Below are positions 1-64,000 of a stretch of DNA of 64,000 bases, one piece after another. This DNA comes from Shigella virus Moo19. The stretch is taken from sequence record MZ358387, one strand, 5' to 3'. The notes below the pieces were generated by a model that did no database searches, was not told the DNA's origin, and saw only the letters and a list, made by a program, of their open reading frames with translations. Made by a program: the position numbers and the translations under genes. How positions within the stretch are numbered: position 1 is the stretch's first letter; each line of letters begins with the position of its first letter.

Positions 1-215
1 TGATGGTGACGATGTGATTCTTGCTGTACCCCGCCCAGTGGCTAGTGGCGGGACCGATTAACTAAAGGGCTTTCCACCTCCTTACCCGTTTAGCTAAAGG
101 CTAATAACTACCACAGTCAGGGTTCCTCGGCTCCTTTGACTTAAGACTGCAATCTTAAGTTTAACGGTACATAAGTACCTAGAGGGATGAACTGACCCGA
201 TACTGAAGTCGGTCA

Positions 216-252
216 GGGGCATAGTCGAGAGGCTATGCCCCATTTCTTTTTA
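216..252 (+). terminator. Stem-loop (9-bp stem ggggcatag/ctatgcccc, 8-nt loop) followed by T-rich tract, just upstream of first ORF
   Basis: Inverted repeat read directly; atttcttttta follows. Confidence 0.4.
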
Positions 253-263
253 TAGGAGCTATC

Positions 264-674
264 ATGGACATCTACGGTCTTGATATAGAAACACAGACAC
301 AAAAGAAAGAAGCTGACCCATACGTGATAGGTTCAGCTCAGTTCTTCGCCACCATCTTTGGTAACAAACACGCTATCCTTCTCCCAGATTGTGAAGAATC
401 CCACGAACTAGTAGGTTGCTGGCTGTTAGACAACATCCCACTAACCACTCGTATCATGAAGCAAGGTGAGACTATCATCTACAATCTGGAAGACTATGGA
501 ATACAAGAGGATGGTCAGTACACATGGATGCCACCTACTTACTTTATTCCACTGCCTGACTGGGAACTCATAGCTTCTCACGACGTATTCAAAAGGCAGA
601 TTGCTATCTACTTCCGTCCACGCCCTACCTGGAGAAAGAATCCATATGCAAGTCCAATTAATCTGTCGCAGTGA
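264..674 (+). CDS. Hypothetical early protein, member A of tandem small-ORF paralog family (SHELVGCWLL motif)
   Basis: ORF track; aggag RBS at 255-259; shares H-E-(V/L/F)-x-G-x-L-L motif with downstream ORFs. Confidence 0.4.
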   Translation: MDIYGLDIETQTQKKEADPYVIGSAQFFATIFGNKHAILLPDCEESHELVGCWLLDNIPLTTRIMKQGETIIYNLEDYGIQEDGQYTWMPPTYFIPLPDWELIASHDVFKRQIAIYFRPRPTWRKNPYASPINLSQ

Positions 675-1011
675 TAAAGATTCTGATGTAGTAAACGCAT
701 TAGAAATTCCATTCGACTTCTTTAGTCATGAGCTACACCTGAGCCAAGTAATCCTGGTTCCCTCCCTTGAGCATTATCATGAAGTTCAGGGGCAACTGTT
801 AATCAATGGTGTGACTGCTAAAGTAATCTGCATTCTTCCACCATCCCAATATCAGCCACCAGTTGGAAGTGTTCCTTATGCACTAGTCACTGATGACTAC
901 GTTGCTAAGTGTGACCCACTGCCTAATGTTGGTAAGTACAACGATACTTTAAATCTTACTTATTATTTCGAGAAGAAAGATGCAGCTACAACTAACGAGG
1001 TTCATGAGTAA
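646..1011 (+). CDS. Hypothetical early protein, paralog family member B (YHEVQGQLLINGVTAKV)
   Basis: ORF track 601-1011; first in-frame ATG beyond most of the overlap with upstream ORF is 646. Confidence 0.4.
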   Translation: MQVQLICRSDKDSDVVNALEIPFDFFSHELHLSQVILVPSLEHYHEVQGQLLINGVTAKVICILPPSQYQPPVGSVPYALVTDDYVAKCDPLPNVGKYNDTLNLTYYFEKKDAATTNEVHE

Positions 1012-1288
1012 CCCTCATAACTTATCTCTAGTGCACCCGGACGCAGAACCTTATCTATTAAGTGACGTTGGTTATGTACTCAGCGGTGAGTCCAAAGTCG
1101 TTATGCTTACCAGTGAGTCAGCTAACCTATTCCTCGTTGAGTGCATGATGCGGGGTGTCAATGCTGATATCACCCTCAAGGAACCAGGTGAGAAAGTATA
1201 TGGTGGCCTGCTCTGCTACTTAATACATAGTCCGCATGAGTATCCTGACTACGATAATGATGGTTATGTCTGGATAAGGAGGCCGTAA
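1004..1288 (+). CDS. Hypothetical early protein, paralog family member C (ends WIRRP)
   Basis: ORF track 980-1288; ATG 1004 overlaps upstream stop (ATGAGTAA). Confidence 0.45.
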   Translation: MSNPHNLSLVHPDAEPYLLSDVGYVLSGESKVVMLTSESANLFLVECMMRGVNADITLKEPGEKVYGGLLCYLIHSPHEYPDYDNDGYVWIRRP

Positions 1289-1563
1289 TGTTTGCCTATT
1301 TTGTACGCTCTACTTACGATGCCTACCACGGTATGCTATCCATCAAGTTAGAAGTAGGGCAACACTGGCCTACTTTTGAACCAGGAACAGCAGCTATTTG
1401 GGTTCATCCTGACATAGACTTTCATGAAGTACAGGGTGACCTGTTACTTCGGGGTAAGACAGCTAAGCTGATGGAATGTCCTCCGAACTATCGAATAAAA
1501 GAGAGTGGCATATTCATCCTGGCTCATAGTTACAGTAATGCACTGGAGTTACTGCGTCCATGA
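1288..1563 (+). CDS. Hypothetical early protein, paralog family member D (FHEVQGDLLLRGKTAKL, ends LLRP)
   Basis: ORF track; start overlaps upstream stop (TAATG). Confidence 0.5.
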   Translation: MFAYFVRSTYDAYHGMLSIKLEVGQHWPTFEPGTAAIWVHPDIDFHEVQGDLLLRGKTAKLMECPPNYRIKESGIFILAHSYSNALELLRP

Positions 1564-1922
1564 ATCTCTTCCTAATACCCCCTATGTCCTGTAATCCGCT
1601 TAAGCTGGTGGGCGAACAACCTACCTGGGATAGACTTGGCGTAACTAAAGAGACTGTCCTGTATGAACCAAGTGAAGAAGCACACGAGTTCATTGGTCAC
1701 TGTCTCATGATAAGTAGTGAAATACAGTTCAAGTCTCTTGCTGAACCAGTAGAAGTAAGGGAACAGGATAAGGTTTATGTAATAGGGCATCACTATCCTG
1801 ATGTATGCACCACCTTACAGGGCAGGCTTATCAGGCTTACTGATGAGAGTACCTGCATCCAGTGTACCTGCTATCACCCCTGCCCTTCTTCAAAGAAGGT
1901 TATCTACCCACTGGATATCTAA
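1560..1922 (+). CDS. Hypothetical early protein, paralog family member E (AHEFIGHCLM), Cys-rich C-terminus
   Basis: ORF track; ATGA overlap with upstream gene. Confidence 0.45.
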   Translation: MNLFLIPPMSCNPLKLVGEQPTWDRLGVTKETVLYEPSEEAHEFIGHCLMISSEIQFKSLAEPVEVREQDKVYVIGHHYPDVCTTLQGRLIRLTDESTCIQCTCYHPCPSSKKVIYPLDI

Positions 1923-2210
1923 ATGAATCTTACTAAGATACACGTTACTCCTACTAAGATGGTTAACTGTCCTATAACTAAAAAGTTATTTACTGTATCC
2001 AGTGACATACTCATTCTTGTACCAGACCTGGATAGCTTTCATGAAGTGAAAGGACAGGAGATGTTACTCAATAAGAAATGGGAAGTTCATCTACTTGAAC
2101 CAGGAAAGGAACTTAGGTGGCTGGGTATGTACAGTCCCTGGCATCTTAATACGGATAGCTACCGTCTTACCTTTACTGACCATATTGCTGTATATACTCC
2201 ACGCCCCTAG
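1923..2210 (+). CDS. Hypothetical early protein, paralog family member F (FHEVKGQEMLL, ends YTPRP)
   Basis: ORF track; tttcatgaagt nucleotide motif shared with members B and D. Confidence 0.5.
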   Translation: MNLTKIHVTPTKMVNCPITKKLFTVSSDILILVPDLDSFHEVKGQEMLLNKKWEVHLLEPGKELRWLGMYSPWHLNTDSYRLTFTDHIAVYTPRP

Positions 2211-2245
2211 CTCCTCAAACATAACTGCTTATAAAGAGTAACCTC

Positions 2246-2434
2246 ATGGATAATATTGCATTAAAAAACTACCGTACTGCTATTCAAGCCATAGAGCTTA
2301 TTAAAGCAGAGGTAGAAGTAACCTTTGGGTTACACGTAGGAACAGACCCAGAACCAGAAATAATGGTGGAAGCTTATAACATTGTTCTGGCTATACGTGC
2401 AGGTTATAACAGGCTATGCGAAGCATCTAAATAG
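2246..2434 (+). CDS. Hypothetical small protein (62 aa)
   Basis: ORF track only. Confidence 0.3.
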   Translation: MDNIALKNYRTAIQAIELIKAEVEVTFGLHVGTDPEPEIMVEAYNIVLAIRAGYNRLCEASK

Positions 2435-2480
2435 GAGGTATATAATTACCCTCTATCTAATATTTTTGCATGTCAAAATG

Positions 2481-2593
2481 GTGATAGCTACTTGTGATAG
2501 CTGTGGTGTGGCAGGGGCTACACCCTTACACGTTAACTACCCCCCCGGTATGTTGACTCATGGGTGTACTACCCTACCCCACCTTACACGTTA
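2481..2593. repeat. Intergenic direct repeats: gtgatagct x2 (2481, 2494) and ccttacacgtta x2 (2524, 2582), plus repeated ctaccc runs
   Basis: Read directly from sequence. Confidence 0.6.
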
Positions 2594-37484: not shown

Positions 37485-37566
37485 GGGGGAGTAGTCAAGC
37501 GGTCGAAGACGGCAGACTGTAAATCTGTTATCCCACACGGTAGTTCGAATCTACCCTCCCCCACCA
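37485..37566 (+). tRNA. tRNA-Tyr (anticodon GTA), 10-nt variable region, CCA encoded
   Basis: Hand-folded cloverleaf: acceptor GGGGGAG/CTCCCCC, T-loop TTCGAAT, anticodon loop CTGTAAA. Confidence 0.65.
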
Positions 37567-37567
37567 C

Positions 37568-37642
37568 GGTAAGTTAGCTAATTGGTGAAGCGGCTGACTG
37601 TTAATCAGTGATAGAGTGGTTCGAGTCCACTACTTACCGCCA
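37568..37642 (+). tRNA. tRNA-Asn (anticodon GTT), CCA encoded
   Basis: Hand-folded: acceptor GGTAAGT/ACTTACC, T-loop TTCGAGT, anticodon loop CTGTTAA. Confidence 0.7.
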
Positions 37643-37647
37643 CATTA

Positions 37648-37724
37648 CGGAGTTTAGCTCAGTCTGGTAGAGCATCTGCTTTGGGAGCAGAGGGTCGTAG
37701 GTTCGAGTCCTGCAATTCCGACCA
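37648..37724 (+). tRNA. tRNA-Pro (anticodon TGG), CCA encoded
   Basis: Hand-folded: acceptor CGGAGTT/AATTCCG, D-arm GCTCAGTCTGGTAGAGC, anticodon TGG. Confidence 0.7.
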
Positions 37725-37730
37725 AACAAT

Positions 37731-37806
37731 TAGGGGTTAGTTCAGTTGGTAGAACATCGGACTTTGATTCCGAATGTCACAGGTTCGAATCCTGTACCCC
37801 TTGCCA
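37731..37806 (+). tRNA. tRNA-Gln (anticodon TTG), CCA encoded; position 1-72 is T-T (unpaired)
   Basis: Hand-folded: D-arm GTTCAGTTGGTAGAAC, anticodon loop CTTTGAT, T-loop TTCGAAT. Confidence 0.6.
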
Positions 37807-38840: not shown

Positions 38841-38872
38841 AAAGCCCCTCTAATGAGGGGCTTTTTTATTTT
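38841..38872. terminator. Bidirectional terminator (aaagcccctc-taat-gaggggctt flanked by A-run and T-run) between convergent + and - transcription units
   Basis: Read directly; T/A tracts on both sides. Confidence 0.7.
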
Positions 38873-41800
38873 AGTTTACCAGATTCATCCAAGGGTTGAG
38901 GTTATGAGCACGTAAGCCCTGACCCAATCCGATAGAGTAATCCAGTCTACCATCAGCAGCAGCCGAGAACAGGTTATCCTGTAATGGCAGACCAACGTTA
39001 CCAAACATGGTAGGAGTTGGAGCCAGCATAGCCATAGCTGCATGAACAGGGTTATTACGAATCATGGACACTGCAACTTTAGTAGAACGAATCTTAAAGT
39101 TATAGAACCACATCAGACCCATGCTTTCCATGTAACCACGGAAACGACCCGGCAGACGGTCATAGTTAATGAACTCTTCGGTAACACGACCCAGAGCTTC
39201 TTCCTTACTCTTACCTTTACGCTTAGTCAGTTCATCATAGATGATTGCTTTAGCAATAAAGTCAGAGTACTCAACCGTCTTCTGGATACCCTGGAACAGA
39301 GCAGTATCCTTAGTGATAAGTGCATAACGACCAGCAGTTTGCAGCTTCTTAGGCAGCTTATCTGCTAAACGCTGCATGTACTCCTGTACCTTACCATCCG
39401 GGATTAACAGGTCATCACGAGAGATACCAGCATCAGCAATAGAAGAGAACTCACCAGCTTCCAGCAAAGGCCAGATACTCATACGCTTATAGCTATCATT
39501 GATGGACTGAATCTCAGCTTTCAGTTTACGAGCCTGGTTCGGATTAGTAGTTGCACGAAGTTCTGCTTCAGCATCAACCTGGCGAAGACGAGACTTCATA
39601 TACTGGTTAATCTCAGCAGTCTTCTGAGGGATACCTTTAGCAATATCCTTAACTGGAACACCACGGGCAACCATCTGATAGAGGTTAGCCAGGAAGTTCA
39701 CAGCAGGAACCACGAGAGACTTGACCACGATTAAGGTCTTAGCCTCACGTACAACCGTCTGAGTGATATTCTCACCCTGCATAAAGTATTTGTATGCACG
39801 GTTGCCAAATACGCCCAGCATTGCTTTCTTGAAGGTATCCAAAGTCTCAGGTGACCAACGAGAGTTACCAGTCCATACATCACCAACAGAAGCAGCACGA
39901 TAACCAAGTGCATCATTCAACATGTCACGACGTACCCACAGTTCACCATTACCAAACAGTGACTCAGCTTTCTGACGAGTTTCTGCATTCATCAGACGCA
40001 TAGCATCAGCAGTAACTGGGTCAAGTTTAGAACCAAGAAGGTTAATGTACTGGCTCTTATTGCTGGTAGAATCTGCCATGTCCTTCTCGTACATAGCGTG
40101 AAGATTTTCAATCAGAGCATCGTTAAACTTCTGGGCTTTAGCTTCTTCTACCTGACGACCTCGCCATACACCAATTGCTTTAGCAAGGTTATCCTCACCA
40201 GCAATGTGAGTCAGCATGTTAGGGTCAATAGAGTGCTCATAAGCAACCACACGACCATTGCCATCATAGATAGGCATCAGTGGTTCATTACCACGTTCAC
40301 CCTTCGCCAGAGCTTTGGTGATACGGTCAACGGAAGGCTTGTCAGTAATACGACCAGCAACCATTGTTCCCATTGTGAAGCCAGTACCAACATCCACACC
40401 ACCAGCAGTATTACGAACGTTCTGGAGAATACCCTGTGAGTATGGAGCACGAGCAGCAACCGGGCTGAAGTAGTAACCACGACTACGAGTACGTTCACCA
40501 GAGCTACCCTGATAACCAGCAATACGAGTGAATGACTTCTCACTCAGTTCGTTAAACTGGCTGTCTTCTGCAACAATCAGGTTAACACCCTGCTTAGTCT
40601 CAGAAGGAATGTAGCCTTTGTAGTGGTTCAAACGAGCACGGTCATCATTCTGTGCTTTACGTTTCTCTTCCACACGCTGGCCTACCAGATAGGAAGTGAC
40701 AAAGTCCATACCTTCGGTTTCAGTCTGAGCCAGGGAAGCTAATGCCTCACGGTCAGCCTGACTCATTGCTTCGATGGCATACAGAGTAATCAGCTTGTCT
40801 AAGGTGTCCACATCAACGGTAGATTTAACGCTGGTACGCTCACCTAACAGACGGGAGATTGCCTCAGCATTACGCAGCAGGTTGTTACCGACAGTACCAT
40901 TAATCATGTACTGAGCCAGTTGCTTAGACTTACGGTTAATCAAAGGCCAGTTACGTCCTGCCTGATTCTGGAGGTCAGCTTCCAGCTTATTAACCAGCTT
41001 ATCCATTTCTTTCTGTGAAGACAGCAGGTCACGAATTTCACCCAGACTCATGGTGTCACGCAGTACAGCAAGGTCAGTTTTACCCATACCAGTGTGCATA
41101 GCTTTCCACTCTGCATCAGTCAGCTTACGGCTGAACTTAGAAGCAATAGTGGTAGGCAGATGCTCACGGAATTGCTGACGGTCAGCCTGTACCTGAGAGC
41201 GAACAGCTTTAATCATGTCATAGACAGAAGCATTCGACTTAGTACGACCTACGATGTCATTAACCAGGTCATAGAAAGGTTGCCATGCTTTTCCCTGGTT
41301 CATTGCAGCCATAACACCCTGTGCAACTTTCTCACCGTTCTTCTCAGTAGCAATAGCAGCTACCAATTGAGCAGCATGAGCAGTTGCCTTAACCAGTGGG
41401 TTCTTAGCATTAGCAGCAACATCACGAGCAGTATCCAGTGTGGCATCAGCCAGACGTTCTACACCATCAACAATATATTGGTTAGCACGGTCAATCATAT
41501 TCCCAGTTGGGGTAGCAACAGAGTCATAGAAGGACTGAGCATTCAGGCTGGATTCCATAATAGTTTCTGCCAGAGCATCAATACCTTCCTGAACGTTAGT
41601 TGCTTTGGTATCACCAGCAACACGCTTGTTCAGGCTATCCATTGCAGCTACGCCAATGTTAGTCAGCATTGCATCAATAGTATTACCGGATGCTTTATCT
41701 GCTTTCATAACAGGCATGTCAGTCAGTACGTTACGTACCTCTTCGCTTACCATTGCCAGACCAACAAAGGTAGGCAGTAAGGAAGAACGACCCTGAGCAT

Positions 41801-44800
41801 CAAACTCAATATTGTTAGCACCCATCAACGTATCGAACTTCTGTTGAGCATAGTAACGGTCAGCAGGGTTAGTGCTGTTCGGGTCTGCCATGAAGTCTTC
41901 TACTTTCAGGTTCTTGGTAACGTGAGTGTAATACTCCTGAGCACGAGCCAGAGCAGCAGGATGAATTGCAGCCTCAGTTGCTAGTGCAGCAACAATGTTG
42001 GTGAACAGACGACGTTCTTGCATGTTCATAGTAAAACCATGCCCCTGAACATCACGAGTTACCTTAACTGCATTCACTACTGCGTCAGAGAATTTACCCT
42101 TACGCATATGTTGCTGTACCGGGTCATTACCCAGGTAGTTCGTAATGAGACGGTCAAAGGTTTGACCCAGTGAAGTAAGACGGTCATTGTTGCCATAAGC
42201 AGTGCTATGGAACAGGGTAGCCTCAGCAGTAACCGGAGCAACCGGAGGCTGTGAACGCATCACTACAGCAGAGTTAAACAGCAGACCGGAGAACATATCT
42301 TCACCGTAAGCAGGGGCTTTCTTACGACCAAAAATGAGGCGTTTAATTGCTTCATAAACATCTTTAACCATCCTGGTAAGAGCAGTGGTTTTCTTCTGCT
42401 TCTTAATCAGTTCATGGTTGGTTAAGCCCCATGCCATGTACTCATTCAGTGCAGCAGCTTTAGCCATTGCTGGGTCAATGAAACCGTTGGACAGATGACC
42501 ATTGATAGTATCCAGTGCATCAGCGTAAGCCTCACGCATAGCCGGAGTATCTTTGGATACATCCAGACTACGGAACTGTTCCATCAGATTCTCGATGTTC
42601 TGTACAGCTTCATTGGTCTGGCCTTGATAGTGGTCAAGTACAGTCTCAAAAGTAGAAGCATGAACCAGTTCATGAATCAAGGTTTCCATTGATGGGCTAA
42701 CCAGGTAGACAGTCTTATCTGCAAAGTTAGTCCAACCATAGATATTACCTGCATTTGCAGCTTCAATATCTTCTGGAGCAGGACGCTCTACGTTACGTTC
42801 CATTGCATACTGGTCAATCTGGTTCACGTTACCGTAAACAACCTTGTAGCCTTTAGCAGCCAGTGACTTCTGAATCTCATTCAGTACAGCAGCCTGTTCA
42901 ACAGGAAGGTTGGACTCTTTAGCCAGTTTGTTAATAGCAGTCTGAGACAGCACACGAACACCAGACTTCAGAGCACGGCCTACAGTATCAAACTTATTAG
43001 TATCGGCTACTGGAGTCTTCTCAGCTTTACGAGCCTCTTTACGAGCCTGCAATTCAGCATCGAATAGCTCATTCAGTTTTGCTACTTGCTGGTCAACAGT
43101 CAGACCATCCAGAGAGATATTACCGTTGTTCACATAAGGGGAACCAACAGCAGCCATCTGGTCAACAGTAGTCTGTACCTGGTTCATTACCTTGTGACGG
43201 ATATCGACACCCAGAGCAATGTTACGCAGGTTACGCTCAATAAGATTAACACCTGCTTTCTCAATCATATCAATCTTATACTGCCTGTCACCATCAACAC
43301 GACTGATATGAGAAAGTTGTTCAAAATCCAAAGCAGAACGGGCAATACTATCAATTGCTTCATCTGATAACTTATTGAAATCTACATTTTTTACAAACTT
43401 AGAGAAGGAGTCATACACATTCTTGATAGGGTTACCCTGCCATGAAGTGTATACAGCTTCGTTAGCCTTACGGCTTGCATCAGTGATGTCATTGATACCG
43501 ATGTTCATACCATCAAAGATTTTGAGAGTATTTTTCGGTGCACCTTTCATAATAGAAAGGGTCTGCATCATCATGCCGTCACCAGTACCAATCGTCATGA
43601 AAGGAATACCAGCAACACCAGCTTGTGACGGTGCATAGATGCTCATTGGCACACGCATACGGTCATCAAAGTTGGTAGCCAGAACCTGGTTAGCAACATC
43701 AGTATTCTCAGAACCAGCAATGTAGAAAGTCTGGGAACCAGTCTCAATCATTGGAGCTAAGTCAGACAGTGAAGCCTGAATATCGTTAAGCTCTTTCTGA
43801 GTTAAGAAGTCACCCTTCTTCCAGTTAGGGTCTTTTTCTTTTTCTGCCAGCTTCTCCTGGACACGTTGCTGGAACATGTCTTGCAGAACCAGAGACTGAA
43901 TCTGGGTAGCTTTCTGAAGCTGTTCAGTGGAGTGCATCAGCCCTTCACCAACAGTATTCTGAATACCCTGTCTCATTGGTTCAACGAAAAAGTGCAGCAT
44001 GTTCTCTTGCAGAGACTTCAGTTGCTCACCTTTGACAGTGAACTTCTGAGGGTCAATCTTGCCAGACATAGCAGTACCAGTGTCTTCAAGAGACAGTTTA
44101 CCTTTACGCATAACTGGAACAGTACCAGTCAATGCTTTCATGTCTTCAATGAAACGACCGAGCATAGCCTCAGCATCGGCCTCAGATGCTGCCTGCTTGC
44201 CGAACATTGCCATAGCCGGGGAAATGTCCGGGTTCTGTGCACGGGCTTGCAGAACGTCGCTGAAGCGTTCGTAGATGGCATCAGTAATTGCACTCACCAT
44301 CTTGCCTGCAATACCACGAGCACCGGAACCATAAATGGTAATGGTCAGTGGGTTCTTGGCAATGCCACGTTTCAGTTCGAGGTTGCCTTCTTCATTGATG
44401 TTATAGTCAGGAATGAACAAGTCCATCAGAGAGGACAGATGATTCATCTGAGTATTAACAGCCGGGTTATTGGCATAGGTATTTCGCAGGTTAGTCAGTG
44501 CAGCTTTCAGACCGTTAGTGGATGCTTCGTACAGGTCAACGCTATCGTCAATAGAACGATGTTCGTTCATCGTCTTACCAGCACGACCAAAGAATAGACC
44601 ACCCTTAGCAGTATTCTGTACCCATTCTTTGGTGAACTTACCACCAGTCATCAGCATCATTGCGTTAATCGGACCGTTGGTTACACCATCAGCCTCAACG
44701 TACAGTGGAGTGTTGAACTTAGACTTGTCTTCAGCATTCAGGTAACGGGCATACTCCATCAGAGCCATGAGAGCTACGAAGGATTTATCACCACCCAATG

Positions 44801-47800
44801 CAGTATTCAGAATCTCAACAGAGTTATCTGGCAGGTTCCCAGTTTTATCGAAATCAACCATCATATCGACAGCAGGTTTCAAATTGCCTTCCAGTGCAGC
44901 AGTCAGTTTTGCTGACATTGCCTCACGAGACATGTTGTGAACCTTGATGCCCAATGCCTGAGCCAAGCCAACCTGGAAATCAGAGAAGGTCTGTGAGTTT
45001 TCATTGGACAGGTCAATAGTAGAAAACGTAGGCAGAATAGCTTCACGAACCAGCTTACTGGACTGAGGATTATTCTTACCAAGCATCTGCATACGACCAA
45101 CACGAGTCATGTTGTAGGCATAGTGGATTGGAGTTTCCAGTCCGTTTTCCTGTGCACGAGTTTGCTCTACCACACTAAACAAGGAATCATAAGCCATAGC
45201 TACTGACAGGTTTTTACCTTCCAGTGACTTAGCAGTATTCACATTCAGCAGTTCAGGATTAAGCGTACCAGCACCCATCAATTCCAGAATCTTGTCACGA
45301 CCCATAGCCTCATAGAAGTTAACCATAGGTTCATGAATACGGAACTCAGTAGCCTGTTCTGCTTTCAGAGCAGCTTTCTGTTCCGGGGTATTCTTAACAG
45401 CAGGGTTGCGTAACTGAGTCTGAGCCACAGAAGGTACGTCGTCACCGAAGTACATTTTCTCTTCTGGTTCTACCAACACAGCTTCTTCAATTGCTGTAGG
45501 GAATTTATTGATAGGGTCATTGTCTGCCAGCTTATCAATGGTATACAGACCAACAGTCTTAGTGGAGTCTGGGTCAATTTCAGAGACATCTAGCATAGTC
45601 TCAGTAACTTCACCTGCTTCAATAAGAGCAGACAGAATCTCAGTTGCCATAGCAACAGGGATACCTTTGGTATAACCCAGTGGTGCATTAGGGTTACGGT
45701 CAAAGCCCCAGTAAGATTCAATTTTCTGAGCCAGTGAGTTAGTAGCTTCAACGAGAGTCTGAGCATTCTCAAACATCTCAACTACACCTTCCGGTAACAG
45801 AGCCTGTTCAATACCAGTAATAGCAGCCACGTCTTTAGCATCTTTAACGGCAGCATTCTGAGTAGCAGTCAGTCGCCATTGCAGACCAGCAAGTACGGCA
45901 GTTTCAAGCAGAGAATCGTTGAACTTAAAGCTATTGCCATCTGGTTCAACAATATTCAGCAGCTTACCACCAACCCAACGGTTAGCTTCAGTGCCCTCAG
46001 CAAAACGCTTACCTACGTTCTTGTTAGACAGGAACTTAGCCAGTCGGTCATTCAGAATGGATTTAATGTTTTCACCCGTGTTCATCAGGTCTTTATAACG
46101 ACCAGATACATCAGGGGTAAGAGCAGTATTCTCACTCTGAGTAAACGTTTCGAAACGTGCATTAGAAGACAGAGCCTGACCAATATCTTTCATTGGAGAC
46201 TCGGAACCAGTGGTACGAGACTTAGGTTCAGCAGGTAATGAGTAAGCAATCTTGAGGTAATTTTTTACCCCAGGCTGGCTGACATCAGTACTCCCAACCA
46301 AATCAGGATAAGCAGCGTCAATACCACTACGAGTGGATTCCACTTCATTAGTAGTTTCCTCAGTATTTTCAGTAACATCCTCGATGCTACCCTCATTGAT
46401 GAGGGTAGCATCCTTTGCCTTTTCGGATTGAGGCTTAGTTACTTTCTCTGGTTCTGCCTTAGACTCAGTAAAAGGAGCACTATTTTCTACCGTCGATTCC
46501 CTATTAGGAGTTACAGTAGGTGCAGCCTCCTGAGTTTGTGCAGGAGTTTCGTCAACTTGATTCACTGGTTCATTAGTCTGTTGGGATTGAGCAGCGTCAA
46601 GATTGCCCTGACGGAACTCTTTAACCACCTGGGCAGCAGGCTTGTCCAGACGTGAATCCAATGAGGTAACATTGATATGAGAAACGTTAAGCTCCGGGTA
46701 AGCCGTAGCAAGTGCATTAGCAATATCAGCTACGGTTTTGGCTTCCAGTCCTACTTGCTGGGCAAACTTAACCGACTTGGTATCGTAAGGATTAACACCG
46801 AGTCCAGTACGACTTCTTACCCATTCACGGGAAGGGGTGAGGGCTTGGTAATGGACAGACTTATTCTTATCCGCATTCCCAGAAATCAGATGTTCATTCA
46901 ACGCTCCGACCTTGTTCTGCATGTGCTGGGCGAACTGCATAAAGTCGCTCAAATAAGCGGAAGCCAAATCGAAGTTACCAGAGTTATACGCAGACCGAAT
47001 GCGTTTAGCATGTTGCAACGCAGAGTACTGGCCTTCATTAGAACGAGACTCGTCGGTTTTAATCTGTTTACCCACAATGTCTTGAGGCCGTAAACCAAGC
47101 TGTTCAGCTTTGGTATCAAACTCACGTGCTCCCTGTAATAGAGCAGCAGCGGATTGCAGGGCAGCACGTTGACGATTGTTCAACGTAATCTTGCCTTCAC
47201 TCGCATGTTTCAGAACCATGTTCACTGAATCAGCGTCCAGTACTTCCGGGCTTACGTCAGCAGCCATTGCTACGTTGTTAGCCTGATTCTGGTCTGCTAC
47301 ATCTTCGGTCACATTCAGATTACCTTGTTCAGCTTGTTCCTGAATCATGGAATGAATGGCACGGAATGCACGAAGTACCTTTGGAGTATTCTGGATGTTA
47401 GCCATCAGACCCGAATACTGGTCGAGCACAGCATTAGCAGGACTATCTTTAGGCAGATTGTTCAGTGCAGCAGGGTCACGGTTAACGAAGTCTTCCATCT
47501 GCATAACCATGTCGTACATATTGGCAGCAGCTTCCATCATCTGGTTCGGGTCTTCAGTAGTGTTAACTACATCAGCCAGTTTCTGGATTACCTGAACTCG
47601 GTCAGTGGAACCGTTAACAGCTTCCTGAACCACAGGAGAAGCATCAGCAAATTCTTCCGGGTTAATACGGGTAGCATTAACCAAATCACTTGCATACTGG
47701 TGTGCAGCAGCCTTCTCTTCAGGAGAGATGTCCATTGCTTCAACAGCATCAGCCATAGTTGCCTGAGCAGTATCTGCTTGTGCAGCAGCTTCCTGAGCAG

Positions 47801-49310
47801 CCTCAGCTACTTTAGCGTCAGCAACAGGAGAAGCCTCTTCATTGCGTCGTGCAACTTCTTCACCACGTTGAACCAGGATATTGGTAATAGGTGAAGCAGC
47901 TTTAGCTACGACATTACCAGCAGCGTTAAGACCAGCCAGGGTAGTACGCAGAGCAGGACCAGCAGCAGCACTTGCAGCTTTAACAGCAGAGCCAGGAGCT
48001 TGAGCAACTCCAGCAGAGCCGAAGCCATAGAGTGCACCCAGACCAGCTTGCTCACCCACACCTTTGAGTGTGTCACGGGTAGCATCAACGTTACTCCGAA
48101 TTGCACGGTTCTGTGCATACTGACCAGTACCAGACTGAATACCTTCTTCCACAGTCTCACGAAGCATGTTGGAACCAGCACCAGCAAGTGAACCTACTTT
48201 CAGTGGATTCAGTTCAAACTTGGATACCAGTGGACCCGTTGCAGCAGCAACCGGAGCAGTGATAGCAGCAGCATCAATACCTGTTTCAGAAGCAGTCTGA
48301 CGACGAGCTTCATCTGGAGAAAGACCATCTTTGATATGTTGCTGATAAACAGGAGACTTAGCAGCCAGTTCTTCATGAGACATTTTCATAATCTCAGAAG
48401 CAGTTTGCTGATAAGCACCACCAGCTTCCATTGTGCCAATAGCAATGGCAGCAGGAGCAACCTTAGAGGCAGCATTAACCAACTGTGCAGGACGATGGCC
48501 TAATTCAGCAGCAAGTGCAATTGCACGAGCAGCTTTTTCACCACCCATTACAGCACGACCTAATGCAGCAACCCCTTTAATAAGAGGACCACCCGTAAAC
48601 AGTGAGCCTACTCCTTCGCTCAATCCATCTGTTGCAGCCATACCAGTGTCAAGAGTGTTGGCAACAGAATCATAAGCGTCACGGCCAATACGAGAAAGAG
48701 AAGCGACCAAATCACTCTCGCCATCTTTAATATCCTGTTCGTATAAACGCTGGTTTTTCTGAGCAGATAGCTGGTTCTGGTTCTGAACTACTTTACGGGA
48801 AAGATTTAAAGCATCAGACTGAAGACCATGAACACCTTCATTCAACCAGTCCATGCCACTAGCTATGGTAGCACCAGCATTATCGTTGATAAGACCTGTT
48901 CCAAGAGAAGCAATGCCCCCAAGGGTATTAGCAACACCAAGACCAACACCAGAAAGAGAATCACCAATTGCTTCTGCATTCGTTCTCTCTCTGGATAAGT
49001 CCTGACGAACAGAATCGGCTGCATTAGCACGGCTATTAAGAATACGAAGACCTTCTTCGGTTCCATACTTAGCAATAAGTTCCATTGGGGAGGCTTGAGT
49101 AAAATCAGCCTGAAGTGAACCTGGTTCGAATGCACCAATGCCGAGATTACCTACCCGACCTGTTTGAAGGTTATAGGCAGTATCTGGGGTGAGTTGGAAA
49201 GGGTTATACCCTTCAGCAGCTTGCTTCTGGGAGGTTGCAGTAGAGACATCGACTTGCTTAGCATTAGTGATGCTGTCTGCGAAACCTGCCAGTCTGTCAA
49301 ATGTTGACAT
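38871..49310 (-). CDS. Virion-encapsidated giant RNA polymerase (N4 vRNAP gp50-like), ~3479 aa
   Basis: Size; T7-like motifs in central part (YVEADGVTNG; RGIAKNPLTITIYGSG; KIFDGMNIG), the two Asp 392 residues apart; ATG 49310 has aggaaa RBS (track start 49352 is GTG). Confidence 0.85.
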   Translation of the reverse strand: MSTFDRLAGFADSITNAKQVDVSTATSQKQAAEGYNPFQLTPDTAYNLQTGRVGNLGIGAFEPGSLQADFTQASPMELIAKYGTEEGLRILNSRANAADSVRQDLSRERTNAEAIGDSLSGVGLGVANTLGGIASLGTGLINDNAGATIASGMDWLNEGVHGLQSDALNLSRKVVQNQNQLSAQKNQRLYEQDIKDGESDLVASLSRIGRDAYDSVANTLDTGMAATDGLSEGVGSLFTGGPLIKGVAALGRAVMGGEKAARAIALAAELGHRPAQLVNAASKVAPAAIAIGTMEAGGAYQQTASEIMKMSHEELAAKSPVYQQHIKDGLSPDEARRQTASETGIDAAAITAPVAAATGPLVSKFELNPLKVGSLAGAGSNMLRETVEEGIQSGTGQYAQNRAIRSNVDATRDTLKGVGEQAGLGALYGFGSAGVAQAPGSAVKAASAAAGPALRTTLAGLNAAGNVVAKAASPITNILVQRGEEVARRNEEASPVADAKVAEAAQEAAAQADTAQATMADAVEAMDISPEEKAAAHQYASDLVNATRINPEEFADASPVVQEAVNGSTDRVQVIQKLADVVNTTEDPNQMMEAAANMYDMVMQMEDFVNRDPAALNNLPKDSPANAVLDQYSGLMANIQNTPKVLRAFRAIHSMIQEQAEQGNLNVTEDVADQNQANNVAMAADVSPEVLDADSVNMVLKHASEGKITLNNRQRAALQSAAALLQGAREFDTKAEQLGLRPQDIVGKQIKTDESRSNEGQYSALQHAKRIRSAYNSGNFDLASAYLSDFMQFAQHMQNKVGALNEHLISGNADKNKSVHYQALTPSREWVRSRTGLGVNPYDTKSVKFAQQVGLEAKTVADIANALATAYPELNVSHINVTSLDSRLDKPAAQVVKEFRQGNLDAAQSQQTNEPVNQVDETPAQTQEAAPTVTPNRESTVENSAPFTESKAEPEKVTKPQSEKAKDATLINEGSIEDVTENTEETTNEVESTRSGIDAAYPDLVGSTDVSQPGVKNYLKIAYSLPAEPKSRTTGSESPMKDIGQALSSNARFETFTQSENTALTPDVSGRYKDLMNTGENIKSILNDRLAKFLSNKNVGKRFAEGTEANRWVGGKLLNIVEPDGNSFKFNDSLLETAVLAGLQWRLTATQNAAVKDAKDVAAITGIEQALLPEGVVEMFENAQTLVEATNSLAQKIESYWGFDRNPNAPLGYTKGIPVAMATEILSALIEAGEVTETMLDVSEIDPDSTKTVGLYTIDKLADNDPINKFPTAIEEAVLVEPEEKMYFGDDVPSVAQTQLRNPAVKNTPEQKAALKAEQATEFRIHEPMVNFYEAMGRDKILELMGAGTLNPELLNVNTAKSLEGKNLSVAMAYDSLFSVVEQTRAQENGLETPIHYAYNMTRVGRMQMLGKNNPQSSKLVREAILPTFSTIDLSNENSQTFSDFQVGLAQALGIKVHNMSREAMSAKLTAALEGNLKPAVDMMVDFDKTGNLPDNSVEILNTALGGDKSFVALMALMEYARYLNAEDKSKFNTPLYVEADGVTNGPINAMMLMTGGKFTKEWVQNTAKGGLFFGRAGKTMNEHRSIDDSVDLYEASTNGLKAALTNLRNTYANNPAVNTQMNHLSSLMDLFIPDYNINEEGNLELKRGIAKNPLTITIYGSGARGIAGKMVSAITDAIYERFSDVLQARAQNPDISPAMAMFGKQAASEADAEAMLGRFIEDMKALTGTVPVMRKGKLSLEDTGTAMSGKIDPQKFTVKGEQLKSLQENMLHFFVEPMRQGIQNTVGEGLMHSTEQLQKATQIQSLVLQDMFQQRVQEKLAEKEKDPNWKKGDFLTQKELNDIQASLSDLAPMIETGSQTFYIAGSENTDVANQVLATNFDDRMRVPMSIYAPSQAGVAGIPFMTIGTGDGMMMQTLSIMKGAPKNTLKIFDGMNIGINDITDASRKANEAVYTSWQGNPIKNVYDSFSKFVKNVDFNKLSDEAIDSIARSALDFEQLSHISRVDGDRQYKIDMIEKAGVNLIERNLRNIALGVDIRHKVMNQVQTTVDQMAAVGSPYVNNGNISLDGLTVDQQVAKLNELFDAELQARKEARKAEKTPVADTNKFDTVGRALKSGVRVLSQTAINKLAKESNLPVEQAAVLNEIQKSLAAKGYKVVYGNVNQIDQYAMERNVERPAPEDIEAANAGNIYGWTNFADKTVYLVSPSMETLIHELVHASTFETVLDHYQGQTNEAVQNIENLMEQFRSLDVSKDTPAMREAYADALDTINGHLSNGFIDPAMAKAAALNEYMAWGLTNHELIKKQKKTTALTRMVKDVYEAIKRLIFGRKKAPAYGEDMFSGLLFNSAVVMRSQPPVAPVTAEATLFHSTAYGNNDRLTSLGQTFDRLITNYLGNDPVQQHMRKGKFSDAVVNAVKVTRDVQGHGFTMNMQERRLFTNIVAALATEAAIHPAALARAQEYYTHVTKNLKVEDFMADPNSTNPADRYYAQQKFDTLMGANNIEFDAQGRSSLLPTFVGLAMVSEEVRNVLTDMPVMKADKASGNTIDAMLTNIGVAAMDSLNKRVAGDTKATNVQEGIDALAETIMESSLNAQSFYDSVATPTGNMIDRANQYIVDGVERLADATLDTARDVAANAKNPLVKATAHAAQLVAAIATEKNGEKVAQGVMAAMNQGKAWQPFYDLVNDIVGRTKSNASVYDMIKAVRSQVQADRQQFREHLPTTIASKFSRKLTDAEWKAMHTGMGKTDLAVLRDTMSLGEIRDLLSSQKEMDKLVNKLEADLQNQAGRNWPLINRKSKQLAQYMINGTVGNNLLRNAEAISRLLGERTSVKSTVDVDTLDKLITLYAIEAMSQADREALASLAQTETEGMDFVTSYLVGQRVEEKRKAQNDDRARLNHYKGYIPSETKQGVNLIVAEDSQFNELSEKSFTRIAGYQGSSGERTRSRGYYFSPVAARAPYSQGILQNVRNTAGGVDVGTGFTMGTMVAGRITDKPSVDRITKALAKGERGNEPLMPIYDGNGRVVAYEHSIDPNMLTHIAGEDNLAKAIGVWRGRQVEEAKAQKFNDALIENLHAMYEKDMADSTSNKSQYINLLGSKLDPVTADAMRLMNAETRQKAESLFGNGELWVRRDMLNDALGYRAASVGDVWTGNSRWSPETLDTFKKAMLGVFGNRAYKYFMQGENITQTVVREAKTLIVVKSLVVPAVNFLANLYQMVARGVPVKDIAKGIPQKTAEINQYMKSRLRQVDAEAELRATTNPNQARKLKAEIQSINDSYKRMSIWPLLEAGEFSSIADAGISRDDLLIPDGKVQEYMQRLADKLPKKLQTAGRYALITKDTALFQGIQKTVEYSDFIAKAIIYDELTKRKGKSKEEALGRVTEEFINYDRLPGRFRGYMESMGLMWFYNFKIRSTKVAVSMIRNNPVHAAMAMLAPTPTMFGNVGLPLQDNLFSAAADGRLDYSIGLGQGLRAHNLNPWMNLVN

Positions 49311-49372
49311 AGCTTGTTTCCTGTTCAAACTTATATCTATAAGAGAACTCACTGTACATTAAGTGAGGGTAA

Positions 49373-61251: not shown

Positions 61252-61752
61252 CTATTGTAAAAGTTTCCGGTCGGCCTTGATTTGGTTCCCCAACTCAATC
61301 AATTGGTTGTCACGGAGTCTAACAGTTGCCCTGAGTTCTTCAACCACTCGTCTGCCTTGTTCAAGACTGGAGTCGAGTTCGGCTGCATGGCTTGCAAGAC
61401 TTCTGCACTCAAAGGTTCCGGCTTCGGCTTGACGTTTATATACGTCGGCTCTTTTGCTTGATTGCTGCATCCGGCTGTCGTAATCACTGCTAAGGCGAGC
61501 AAGCTCGCCTGCGTAATTACTCTCAGCCGTCTGCAATCTGGTAGTGAGCATACCGACTTCATAGCTGTGTTGTCTGTTAAGGACATCGTATTCACCCTTA
61601 AGTTTATTGTAGGCTTTCTGGTCTTCTACTTTCTGAGCATCCCACTTGGCCTGAACTTTATCCTGACCATTACTGGAACCCCAAAAGTAAATGGTGGCTC
61701 CCAAAGCCACCACTACCAGATAAGGCCAACCTTTAGAGATTAGCGTCATCAT
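61252..61752 (-). CDS. i-spanin (Rz-like): N-terminal TM plus periplasmic coiled-coil
   Basis: ATG 61752 with ggagg RBS; TM segment [22 protein letters not shown]; adjacent to endolysin. Confidence 0.5.
61299..61586 (-). CDS. o-spanin (Rz1-like) lipoprotein embedded in the i-spanin gene in another frame
   Basis: Lipobox-like ITTAGC after hydrophobic signal; ATG 61586 with aaggg RBS; embedded architecture. Confidence 0.45.
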   Translation of the reverse strand: MSLTDNTAMKSVCSLPDCRRLRVITQASLLALAVITTAGCSNQAKEPTYINVKPKPEPLSAEVLQAMQPNSTPVLNKADEWLKNSGQLLDSVTTN

Positions 61753-62368
61753 TACATGCCTCCAGAGGCACATTACCAATACGGTTTGATATCCAGCCAT
61801 ACGTATAGTCAGGCATGTTTAACGAGGTGTAGTGATTAAGTTGTTTACCATCCAATAGCTTAATCATAGTCTTACAGGCTTCTACTTTGCCTCGTTTTTT
61901 CTGGAGTGCCCTATACGAGTTAATGGTTGCTGTACCAACTTTACCATCAACTTGTATTTTAGGGTAGTCTTTGCCATTACGACTAACGTCATTCAAAGAC
62001 TCTTGAAGCCAACGTGCTGGACGTGGTGTCCCAGTGTTTACTCCAGCATCCACCAGCTTGTGGGTCACAGCAGGACTAATAGAAGCGAACTCAATAAAGT
62101 TTGGCTTGATAATGTAGTCATCAACATAAACTTCAGCAGCCATCTCTTTAGTAAGTCCTTTCATAGTCCCATCCCATCCGTATTTCTTTGCTAAGACTTC
62201 CTTGTGGGACTGGGCTACTTTCTTAGTTATCCCGTGATTAGTTTCCCCTCCTGGGTCTTTGGGGTCATTTACATAACCACCTTCCAGCATAAAAACGGAA
62301 CCAAGAATGGCAGCAACTACTGCTCCCACTGCACCACCCCTGGTTGCTAGTTTTTTATTTATTGCCAT
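61733..62368 (-). CDS. GH108-family N-acetylmuramidase endolysin with N-terminal SAR-like hydrophobic segment
   Basis: Signature EGGYVNDPKDPGGETNHGIT; N-terminal GGAVGAVVAAILGSVFML; gaggagg RBS. Confidence 0.75.
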   Translation of the reverse strand: MAINKKLATRGGAVGAVVAAILGSVFMLEGGYVNDPKDPGGETNHGITKKVAQSHKEVLAKKYGWDGTMKGLTKEMAAEVYVDDYIIKPNFIEFASISPAVTHKLVDAGVNTGTPRPARWLQESLNDVSRNGKDYPKIQVDGKVGTATINSYRALQKKRGKVEACKTMIKLLDGKQLNHYTSLNMPDYTYGWISNRIGNVPLEACNDDANL

Positions 62369-62621
62369 GATAGTCCTCCTCTTTAGGCTTTAAACGAATA
62401 AGCCTGCCAACGATGTTCAAGGCAAATAAGCCAATGGCAACACCTGAACCATGTGGAATCTGGTCAAGCAGATGTCTTGGCAAACCTGAGAACATTGGCT
62501 GGATTATATCGACGGCAGAGAAGAGAATCAGACCAATAGTACTAATCTGGATAGAAGCCCATTTCCAGGCTCGTTTCCAGTTAGGTACTAGTTCAACCCT
62601 TTTGGTTAACCTGCGAACCAT
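62355..62621 (-). CDS. Two-TM holin (pinholin-like)
   Basis: Two hydrophobic segments; overlaps endolysin start; aaggag RBS. Confidence 0.5.
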   Translation of the reverse strand: MVRRLTKRVELVPNWKRAWKWASIQISTIGLILFSAVDIIQPMFSGLPRHLLDQIPHGSGVAIGLFALNIVGRLIRLKPKEEDYHGNK

Positions 62622-62935
62622 GCGAAAATCTCCTTACGTGCTGCAACCAACAGACTTAAGATTGCACCTGCTGCTGCCCATACCCACTTACCAAAGATTC
62701 CTGCACCAACTACCTTGTGCTTAATGGTAATGAACTCTTCGATGGTAGGCTCATTTTTAGCAAGACTCTCTTCAACATTCTTAAGTCTGTTACTAACTTC
62801 AGCAACTGAGTCCTTAAGATTGGTGATGGAGTTTTCCAGCTTTGCTCGGTCATTCCTTTCACGTTCCTGGTTCTCGAACATGGTTTTAAATCGTTCCTCC
62901 AGTCGAGCCAGTAATACATCAGTGGGTTCAGACAT
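62606..62935 (-). CDS. Coiled-coil protein with C-terminal TM; possible holin/antiholin-type lysis regulator
   Basis: ORF track frame (ATG 62935); C-terminal hydrophobic GAGIFGKWVWAAAGAILSLLVAA. Confidence 0.35.
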   Translation of the reverse strand: MSEPTDVLLARLEERFKTMFENQERERNDRAKLENSITNLKDSVAEVSNRLKNVEESLAKNEPTIEEFITIKHKVVGAGIFGKWVWAAAGAILSLLVAARKEIFAWFAG

Positions 62936-63031
62936 AATAATTTTCCACGTAGTAATAATATGCACCAGGAATAATACTTATAAACGCTAGCCTACGAAAG
63001 GAAAAAGCCCCCATTAAGGAGGCTTACTTTT

Positions 63032-64000
63032 TTAAAGCTGGGAGATGCTCCAGTATGCACTACGTGATTTTGTCAGTGGTGGTCTAGTGGTAAGTGGTTC
63101 GGTTGCCCGAATACGAGTACCTGCCGGAACTGCTGTCTGAATAGGATGAGCAATGTCCATCGTAATCGGAGCAGAGATGTTTGTAGCAGGTGTCTGATAA
63201 GGAGCCTTAGTAATATAAGTCTCAAGGTCAGCACCTCCAGCCCCAGCACCCGGAATTGTAATACGAGTACCTGGTGAGAACTGGCAAACGTACAACCATG
63301 CTGAACCCTTAGACGTACCATCTGGAGTCAGATTCTGGGTAATGGTTTTAGTCCCAACAGCAGCAGCTTTAATATCTGCTTCTTCGGTATCCGGGATAAA
63401 CACACCAGGGGAAGTAACTACGAATGGGCTGTTAACGTAAACGTCAGCAGCAACAAACTTAGTCTTATCCCTCATGTTGTCACGACCAGAGAGTGACGTG
63501 TTAGGAACCATCATGGAACGTTGAAGCTCCATAACAAACACCGTATCCCCATAGTTAAACTGACGACCAGTAGGGAAACGAGTACCATTCTGACCGTGGT
63601 CAGCTTCACCAGGGAAGTAGACACGACCAGCAGAACCAACAGGCACACCGTTAGAACCAATGAAGTTAGCGTATGGTACAGACGTAACGTTAGAACCAGT
63701 GATGCTCACCTCAGAGTAACGGCAACGTAACCAGCCCTGACTAATTGCAATACGGTCACCGTGGGTAGCGTTAACGTTAGTCATGTTCAGGACAGAACGT
63801 TGGAACGTAAACCAACCATCACCAGTAAAGCCATCAGCAGAAGAATACTGACCAACACAGTTAAATACCTGAGTCAGTACGTTGGACATGTTCAACTCAG
63901 ATGCTACACCGAACACAGTGAACTTGTAGGCATCAATGTTATCCAGTGTCACACGGTTATTGTGCTCAACCAGATTGCCGTCCAGACCAGCAGATACACC
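63032..64000 (-). CDS. Virion/tail structural protein, C-terminal part (gene continues beyond window edge)
   Basis: Open reading frame continues without stop to position 64000; Gly/Thr/Ser-rich beta-type composition. Confidence 0.4.
   Translation of the reverse strand, partial: GVSAGLDGNLVEHNNRVTLDNIDAYKFTVFGVASELNMSNVLTQVFNCVGQYSSADGFTGDGWFTFQRSVLNMTNVNATHGDRIAISQGWLRCRYSEVSITGSNVTSVPYANFIGSNGVPVGSAGRVYFPGEADHGQNGTRFPTGRQFNYGDTVFVMELQRSMMVPNTSLSGRDNMRDKTKFVAADVYVNSPFVVTSPGVFIPDTEEADIKAAAVGTKTITQNLTPDGTSKGSAWLYVCQFSPGTRITIPGAGAGGADLETYITKAPYQTPATNISAPITMDIAHPIQTAVPAGTRIRATEPLTTRPPLTKSRSAYWSISQL

Follow-up and report, generated by a model that had tools for sequence, protein, structure and literature searches.

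Introduction

In phage N4, the gp60-63 cluster on a plasmid is enough to bring about rapid lysis (bioRxiv 10.1101/2025.11.12.688109), and it is with this cluster that we compare five minus-strand genes lying at positions 61252-62935 of a 64,000-nucleotide stretch of Shigella virus Moo19 (record MZ358387), the whole of which is referred to below as the window. According to the same preprint, N4 gp63 is a pinholin and the main timer of lysis, its pinholin behaviour having been shown through complementation and CCCP (carbonyl cyanide m-chlorophenylhydrazone) assays: gp63 complements a defect in S21, the pinholin of phage 21, but not a defect in lambda S, it kills cells alone, and its deletion makes plasmid-driven lysis 20 min later. 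Six rapid-lysis substitutions in gp63 cluster at S62, T65, I70, T71 and I72, termed the 'LIN domain'. N4 gp62 is a dispensable, late-triggering large-hole holin that can release the soluble lambda endolysin; its deletion from the cluster leaves plasmid-driven lysis unchanged, and it has been described as a protein of 109 amino acids (aa) with alternative starts, or 'dual-start' (bioRxiv 10.1101/2025.11.12.688109). The third protein, gp61, is described in the preprint, and in Stojkovic and Rothman-Denes 2007 as cited there, as a signal-anchor-release (SAR) endolysin with N-acetylmuramidase activity. Endolysin defects are complemented by gp61 whether the hole-former present is a large-hole holin or the pinholin of phage 21, and by itself gp61 makes cells round up slowly, as R21 does. 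It is membrane-associated, and its rapid-lysis mutations add negative charge to the SAR segment (G12E). Finally, gp60 and gp60a fully complement lambda Rz/Rz1 amber mutants (bioRxiv 10.1101/2025.11.12.688109). In the Gamaleyavirus UE-M6, a 211-aa GH108 endolysin and an 86-aa holin have been cloned and found active, the holin homologue having the same topology of two transmembrane (TM) segments by DeepTMHMM (PMC12661215).

The lysis cassette and its proteins

The five genes of the window very probably constitute a late-expressed lysis cassette of the N4 type, a gene-for-gene orthologue of N4 gp63-gp62-gp61-gp60/gp60a (Table 1). They are collinear with the N4 cluster at amino-acid identities of 59-69% (E = 7e-33 to 8e-114), successive genes overlap by 16, 14 and 20 nucleotides (nt), and gene lengths and overlaps agree with the annotations of St11Ph5, G7C and N4. 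The same gene string is found between tail-fibre and portal genes in N4, G7C, St11Ph5, nithesis and Klebsiella phage PW7, and likewise in Achromobacter phage JWAlpha, Erwinia phage Frozen, Burkholderia phage HN05 and Stenotrophomonas phage Pokken, whose record carries the labels 'holin class II', 'SAR endolysin N-acetylmuramidase', 'i-spanin' and 'o-spanin, embedded in i-spanin'. The portal gene of the window, which starts 8 nt beyond the i-spanin stop and thus adjoins the cassette, fixes the N4-type gene order. Matches to PHROG models of holin, endolysin and Rz-like spanin fall in the range 3e-28 to 1.6e-72; none of the five proteins has an above-cut-off match in NCBIfam. Open reading frames (ORFs), topology features, domain membership, orthology and dual-coding selection were computed here, and the functional steps are taken from N4 experiments and from general knowledge of SAR endolysins and spanins. 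Topology was called from hydropathy (KD19) and charge, and the choice between SAR and cleaved N-termini, as well as the signal peptidase II site, from composition rules and orthology. The original prediction had placed five minus-strand ORFs here, all of which are present with the ends it gave, and its four functional labels (an embedded Rz1-in-Rz spanin pair, a GH108 SAR endolysin, a two-TM holin and a helical protein with a C-terminal TM segment) prove right through orthology to tested N4 proteins. The cassette is therefore ordinary, in that each part has an orthologue already tested in phage N4.

Table 1. Position and basis of the features described in the window
Feature	Position	Strand	Basis
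gp63-like protein, 109 aa	62606..62935	-	phrog_5211, 3e-47; 62% identity to N4 gp63, E = 3e-50
gp62-like predicted class II holin, 88 aa, two TM	62355..62621	-	Pfam DUF7940; phrog_1356 'holin'; 65% identity to N4 gp62, E = 1e-44
gp61-like predicted SAR endolysin, 211 aa: SAR segment, GH108 N-acetylmuramidase, PG_binding_3	61733..62368	-	Pfam; 69% identity to N4 gp61, E = 8e-114
Predicted SAR core of the endolysin, residues 11-28, GGAVGAVVAAILGSVFML	62285..62338	-	18 residues, 50% Gly/Ala/Ser/Thr
gp60-like i-spanin, 166 aa	61252..61752	-	phrog_6197 'Rz-like spanin', 1.6e-72, full length; 61% identity to N4 gp60, E = 1e-64
gp60a-like o-spanin, 95 aa (ATG 61586) or 87 aa (ATG 61562)	61299..61586	-	+1 frame of i-spanin; 59% identity to N4 gp60a, E = 7e-33
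TAA four codons ahead of the gp62 ATG, in frame	62634..62636	-	Closes the 22-codon extension (region 62634-62687)
Portal gene (gp59-like), 760 aa	58961..61243	-	Pfam SU10_portal, 1.6e-148; 71% identity to N4 gp59
Terminator-like hairpin and U-run	63005..63025	-	Consensus scan; fold -14.1 kcal/mol, z = -2.2 against shuffles
Weak sigma-70-like promoter candidate (TTTATA-18-TATTAT), ahead of the gp63-like gene	62955..62984	-	Consensus scan

The first gene product, the gp63-like protein, is assigned as an orthologue of gp63, the pinholin and timer of lysis in N4. Its PHROG match is to an entry of unknown function. It has one hydrophobic segment, at the C-terminus (KD19 1.75), which would form a Gly/Ala-rich TM anchor, and a single-sequence AlphaFold model contains helices at residues 3-61 (confident), 65-77 (short, over the LIN segment) and 82-108 (the transmembrane domain, TMD). 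An alignment of nine gp63 homologues has 21 invariant columns, mostly in the P63-W106 segment, and conservation within the protein is highest in the TM and LIN segments. The LIN residues T65, I70, T71 and I72 of N4 gp63 are all kept in the window; the segment PTIEEFITIKHK is identical in both phages, and the wider segment PTIEEFITIKHKVVGAG matches N4 except for an Asn at the residue equivalent to S62. The anatomy given in the original prediction, a coiled-coil protein with a C-terminal TM segment, thus stands, and the role that it had left blank is supplied by the orthology to the N4 pinholin. By analogy with N4, the gp63-like protein would form small, lethal, depolarising holes that free SAR endolysins but not soluble ones. 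In Pseudomonas phage Meara (1376-2301 of locus L006), a gp63-like gene annotated 'holin' abuts the endolysin gene and there is no gp62-like gene, an arrangement consistent with gp63 as the essential hole-former. The records of Frozen, HN05, PW7 and other phages carry the label 'tail length tape-measure protein' on their orthologues of the gp63 type (1093-1428 of L008, 1154-1486 of L009 and 834-1166 of L010); on a membrane protein of 110 aa, this label is almost certainly a propagated mis-annotation.

The gp62-like protein is predicted to be a class II holin with both termini in the cytoplasm (N-in/C-in) and can be identified as the orthologue of the dispensable late holin gp62 of N4. Its designation as a two-TM holin is borne out by two hydrophobic segments (KD19 1.83 and 1.53), by matches to Pfam DUF7940 (1e-15, 58.5 bits against a cut-off of 27) and to phrog_1356 (3e-28), and by the orthology itself; the net charge is +6 for the N-terminus, 0 for the loop and +1 for the C-terminus.

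The gp61-like protein is predicted to be a GH108 N-acetylmuramidase of the N4 gp61 type. The GH108 domain (PF05838) is recognised at 3.4e-20 and 72.8 bits, against a cut-off of 21.2, the PG_binding_3 domain (PF09374) at 6.3e-08, above its cut-off, and relatives in the PDB are 6v3z (E = 9e-27) and 6v40; the NCBIfam model holin_dep_muram scores 56.5, below its cut-off of 240. The conserved motif EGGY...DPGG.T..G is present as LEGGYVNDPKDPGGETNHGIT, and the sequence is the same as that of N4 over EGGYVNDPKDPGGETNHG. At the N-terminus there is one hydrophobic segment (KD19 1.84), flanked on its N-terminal side by three basic residues, and the core directly abuts the EGGY motif (residues 29-32), as in N4; G15 of the window aligns with N4 G12, and this SAR design is common to all ten homologues compared. 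Together with the above-cut-off GH108 match and the orthology to N4 gp61, the weakly hydrophobic, Gly/Ala-rich core upholds the earlier description of a GH108 endolysin with a SAR-like N-terminus. We infer that the N-terminus would be uncleaved and membrane-tethered, with release on depolarisation or spontaneously. The endolysin of Escherichia phage Jgk1 (1377-2015 of L011) reads EGGEVNNPKDPGRHTNLGLT where all the others read EGGYVN.P.DPGG.TNHG(I/V)T; this deviation may be due to sequencing errors, the record being flagged UNVERIFIED.

The i-spanin is predicted to have a type II topology, with a single N-terminal TMD and a mostly helical periplasmic domain. A GGAGG Shine-Dalgarno site lies 6 nt upstream of its start, the TM segment occupies approximately residues 8-25 (nt 61678-61731; KD19 1.36) after the residues MMTLISK, and a helical periplasmic domain of 141 residues follows; the G7C i-spanin, which is 80% identical to that of the window, is listed as 93.6% helical in a survey of spanins (PMC6139136). 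The single periplasmic Cys of the i-spanin is C116, in a conserved TxxC(R/L)xLASHAA context, and the mature o-spanin contains no Cys beyond that of its lipobox. The original prediction had called such a Cys-free mature o-spanin atypical, a view that does not hold, since this feature characterises the N4 spanin family. It is shared by N4, G7C, St11Ph5, PW7, Pokken, Meara and JWAlpha, only HN05 having two Cys; the curated family entry lists no o-spanin Cys and one i-spanin Cys, and 124 of the 526 o-spanins surveyed are without a periplasmic Cys (PMC6139136). At least one Cys in either subunit was the rule in that survey (507/528 systems), and the window conforms to it via i-spanin C116, through which a putative homotypic disulfide could form. 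In JWAlpha (2296-2811 of L007) and Meara (2302-2808 of L006), other residues stand in place of the i-spanin Cys (…ERNRLARHAA… and …ERDSLARHAA…), and in the o-spanin there is no additional Cys; the whole complex is therefore Cys-free in the periplasm, which places these phages in the unexplained class of about 4% of the survey.

The embedded o-spanin gene

The o-spanin gene lies wholly inside the i-spanin gene. Its start is offset by 166 nt (or 190 nt, depending on the start codon) and its stop lies 47 nt ahead of the i-spanin stop, the offsets of 190 and 47 nt being equal to the PhAPEC5/7 architecture of the survey (PMC6139136). The lipobox TTAG/C is found at nt 61481-61467, with Ser at +2, and the mature part has 56 aa, 6 of them Pro. 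This lipobox fits the broad PROSITE-style pattern and is the same as that of G7C, whose o-spanin was accepted in the curated set with a 56-aa mature part (PMC6139136). By analogy with such proteins, the product would be an outer-membrane lipoprotein.

We conclude that the embedded frame is to be read as a real gene, because it is conserved in relatives, in a pattern that the i-spanin cannot explain, and because it leaves a dual-coding constraint. The length of the ORF was dropped as evidence, given that 320 of 5000 synonymous-codon shuffles of the i-spanin (6.4%) yielded an alternative-frame open run as long or longer, and a test of dual-coding conservation was used instead. By tblastn, the embedded frame is conserved in 153 phage records from at least seven host genera. 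In phages that infect Escherichia, Klebsiella, Achromobacter, Stenotrophomonas, Pseudomonas and Burkholderia, the lipobox Cys and the 56-aa mature part, with the pattern INVKP..EPLS..(V/I/L)LQAMQP(N/D), are kept at 55-84% identity, even where identity of the i-spanin drops to 38-60%. For the dual-coding test, we took the i-spanin codons that encode the same amino acid in the window and in each of eight relatives and compared the share of unchanged codons by a one-sided Fisher test. Unchanged codons make up 67-95% over the mature o-spanin stretch, as against 25-62% outside the overlap (p = 0.025 to 7e-7; p = 1.9e-05 for the comparison with N4). The part encoding the signal peptide is free of this constraint in most of the distant comparisons (for instance, 6/18 codons unchanged against N4 and 1/9 against Meara), as expected of a leader. 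With the full-length phrog_6197 match of the i-spanin, the conservation of the +1 frame and the orthology to N4 gp60/gp60a, the Rz1-in-Rz pair of the original prediction is confirmed.

The start codon of the o-spanin is ambiguous. Three starts are possible (61562-61595), namely GTG 61595, ATG 61586 and ATG 61562, and each gives the same mature lipoprotein. An AAGGG Shine-Dalgarno-like site precedes the ATG at 61586 by 8 nt, and this start agrees with the St11Ph5 annotation (95 aa); the ATG at 61562 equals the 87-aa form curated for N4-family phages (PMC6139136); the annotated lengths disagree among phages as well, with 95 aa in St11Ph5, 123 aa in G7C and 87 aa in the curated survey.

Proposed mechanism and alternative readings

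By analogy with N4, we propose that lysis by the window phage could proceed as follows. The GH108 muramidase would be exported by Sec and tethered, inactive, to the inner membrane via its weakly hydrophobic, Gly/Ala-rich SAR segment. The gp63-like protein, with its C-terminal anchor and long cytoplasmic helix, would accumulate until, at a set time, small holes collapse the membrane potential; depolarisation would release the SAR endolysin into the periplasm, where it would be activated and would degrade the murein. The gp62-like two-TM holin may act as a slower hole-former with an accessory or back-up role. The i-spanin in the inner membrane and the o-spanin lipoprotein in the outer membrane, where the Ser at +2 would direct it, would together span the periplasm as a complex covalently stabilised solely by the C116 homodimer disulfide of the i-spanin, and this complex would disrupt the outer membrane once the murein is gone.

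Several points weigh against a full transfer of the N4 scheme to the window. The N4 proteins with experimental support are only 59-69% identical to those described here, and the key functional source for the N4 cassette is a preprint. The AlphaFold helix 82-108 of the gp63-like protein, taken as its TM helix, is of low confidence (predicted local distance difference test score, pLDDT, ~50), and residue -3 of the o-spanin lipobox is Thr, which the strict [LVI][ASTVI][GAS]C consensus does not allow (PMC6139136). The long form of N4 gp62 cannot be made here, since a TAA closes the upstream frame, so that only the 88-aa form is possible. Lysis inhibition is not universal among N4 relatives, G7C being without it (bioRxiv 10.1101/2025.11.12.688109), and the timing and regulation of lysis in the window phage may therefore differ from those of N4.

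The division of labour between the two hole-forming candidates could also be reversed, the gp62-like protein being the main holin and the gp63-like protein chiefly a regulator (antiholin or activator) rather than a hole-former. Such an arrangement would agree with most database annotations and with the original prediction, which name gp62 'the holin', with an earlier thesis in which gp63 is the 'activator of gp61', with the lack of the long gp62 isoform in the window and with the variable LIN behaviour of N4-like phages. We nevertheless consider it improbable: in N4, it is the loss of gp63, and not that of gp62, that delays plasmid-driven lysis, gp63 is lethal to cells on its own and can make up for a defective pinholin, the endolysin gene of Meara adjoins a gp63-like gene and has no gp62 beside it, and the parts of gp63 that are most conserved are the TM and LIN segments, down to the PTIEEFITIKHK shared by the window and N4. 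It is very unlikely that the endolysin N-terminus is instead an ordinary cleavable Sec signal peptide, with active secretion and a timing independent of holin-triggered release. By the (-3,-1) rule alone, cleavage following ILG23 is conceivable; however, the hydrophobic core leads straight to the EGGY motif and leaves no room for a polar c-region, N4 gp61 is found with the membrane and acts as the SAR endolysin of phage 21 does, and the Pokken orthologue is annotated as a SAR endolysin by the Center for Phage Technology. The premature lysis that follows the insertion of a charge into the SAR segment of gp61 (G12E, at the position aligned with G15 of the window) is likewise expected of a tether and not of a cleaved leader. 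As for the +1-frame ORF, it could be an unexpressed by-product of the i-spanin sequence, with the outer membrane disrupted in another way; open runs of this length do arise in the 6.4% of shuffles mentioned above, and the product matches no PHROG, Pfam or NCBIfam model. The synonymous sites of the i-spanin are, however, frozen over the mature o-spanin part and not over the signal peptide, the lipobox Cys and mature part are better conserved across six host genera than the i-spanin that encloses them, and N4 gp60 plus gp60a complement lambda spanin mutants, all of which makes a by-product extremely improbable.

The closed extension of gp62 can be examined further by comparison with relatives. 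The gp62 frame is open for exactly 22 codons upstream of the annotated ATG, with two extra starts, in N4, Jgk1, St11Ph5, G7C, PW7, JWAlpha, Frozen and HN05, which amounts to eight of the nine gp62-carrying relatives, the nearest (Jgk1) included; Pokken is without the extension, like the window. It is the invariant G-K-W-x-W codons of gp63 that create these extra starts. In the window, the TAA (62636-62634) arises from the gp63 codons CGT AAG (Arg-Lys), where the Enquatrovirinae relatives examined have Arg-Arg, and the same bases form the TAAGGAG Shine-Dalgarno site for the 62621 start. A scan of IMG/VR for exact patterns of the gp63/gp62 junction, which is of low power, gave no match for the stop version and five N4-like contigs for the open version. 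In relatives, the gp63 codons overlapped by the extension show synonymous conservation no higher than that of the adjacent, non-overlapped LIN codons, and therefore there is no evidence of selection for the long form of gp62. The long isoform is to be regarded as an accessory feature that does not define the family, and its closure as a minor curiosity. It could be surmised that the window phage has naturally lost an antiholin-like long isoform, with lysis timing or lysis inhibition that might differ from N4; we hold this to be unlikely, and if true, it would offer a natural experiment on the importance of the gp62 'dual start'.

Comparison with known systems

The N4 cassette has the same five genes, order, overlaps, embedded architecture and portal neighbour as the window. 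The two phages share the design of the SAR core, the EGGY motif and the PTIEEFITIKHK LIN segment, as well as a mature o-spanin of 56 aa without additional Cys and an i-spanin whose one Cys lies in the TxxC(R/L)xLASHAA context. They differ at LIN residue S62, which is Asn in the window, in the lipobox (TTAG/C in the window, TIVG/C in N4), in the alternative start Met17 of gp63, which is not conserved in the window, and in the 22-codon extension giving the 109-aa form of gp62, which is closed by a stop in the window and leaves the 88-aa form. Besides Jgk1, the closest sequenced relatives are the Gamaleyavirus cassettes (G7C gp63-gp60', St11Ph5 gp63-gp60.1/60.2 and UE-M6), at 65-80% identity per protein, with the same lipobox ITTAGC, the same signal-peptide core and the same endolysin length of 211 aa; the G7C and St11Ph5 records already annotate the embedded spanin pair. 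In contrast to the window, these phages retain the upstream extension of gp62; nucleotide identity to them is only ~77%, and the window tailspike is unrelated to theirs at megablast level.

The lysis genes of phage 21 (S21/R21) follow the same logic, a tethered SAR endolysin being freed once small holes depolarise the membrane, and they are linked functionally to the N4 type, as N4 gp63 complements the S21 defect and N4 gp61 functions with S21. The two systems are, however, unrelated in sequence. Of the two TMDs of S21, one is a SAR domain in its own right; gp63, in contrast, carries just one TMD, at its C-terminus, together with a long helix in the cytoplasm. R21 is an enzyme of the T4-lysozyme type, unlike gp61, which combines GH108 and PG_binding_3 domains. 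In lambda Rz/Rz1, the gene of the o-spanin lipoprotein is likewise fully embedded in the +1 frame, the i-spanin is of type II with a helical periplasmic domain, and the N4 pair functionally replaces the lambda pair. The pair of the window is nevertheless placed in another spanin family (the 'N4' family, PMC6139136): its o-spanin has no Cys, whereas lambda Rz1 has C29, its i-spanin has one Cys and not two, and its mature o-spanin exceeds that of lambda in length and has a lower share of Pro (56 aa, 6 Pro).

The result matters little beyond correct annotation. It indicates that the cassette of pinholin, holin, SAR-GH108 endolysin and embedded spanins is conserved in another, somewhat divergent Enquatrovirinae lineage, and it shows that database records continue to list pinholins of the gp63 type as 'hypothetical' or 'tape measure' and frequently leave out the embedded o-spanin. 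It also provides one more natural variant, with the S→N change in the LIN segment and no long gp62 form, for comparing lysis timing in N4-like phages.

Genomic setting

The window is assigned to the DNA of an N4-like podovirus (Schitoviridae, Enquatrovirinae), a coliphage. Its best DNA matches are to Jgk1 and the Gamaleyavirus group (G7C, St11Ph5, Bp4, pSb-1 and UE-M6), at 77-82% nucleotide identity and with partial coverage, and the window phage therefore represents a distinct lineage inside a well-known family. Upstream of the cassette, a tailspike-like ORF (63032-64000, minus strand) continues past the window end, its listed GTG start being an artefact, and its C-terminal part matches phrog_6117 ('colanic acid degradation') at 1.6e-66. 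Megablast similarity to the Gamaleyaviruses stops inside the gp63-like gene (~62790), and that to Jgk1 at ~62947; this break near the gp63-like gene suggests a swapped host-range module.

Just past the tailspike stop (63032) and upstream of the cassette lies a hairpin (63025-63005) that may act as a terminator; at the same place, a terminator is annotated in Pokken and a repeat in G7C. Sigma-70-like matches in the cassette region are no more frequent than shuffled sequence predicts, and the match ahead of the gp63-like gene is listed as a mere candidate (Table 1). Two further terminator-like hairpins lie within coding sequence (61714-61690 and 62323-62310) and were treated as chance.

At the other end of the window (1-2500), megablast finds nothing in the relatives that matches the first ~2.4-2.5 kb, and the match to G7C and St11Ph5 starts at position 1 of their records (~2509 of the window). 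It seems that the window either crosses the opening point of the G7C and St11Ph5 genomes or carries a different end region. Elsewhere, four tRNA genes (Tyr-GTA, Asn-GTT, Pro-TGG and Gln-TTG) are clustered at 37485-37806 on the plus strand, and an ORF of 3493 aa on the minus strand (38871-49352) matches, by size alone, the virion-encapsidated RNA polymerase of the N4 type.

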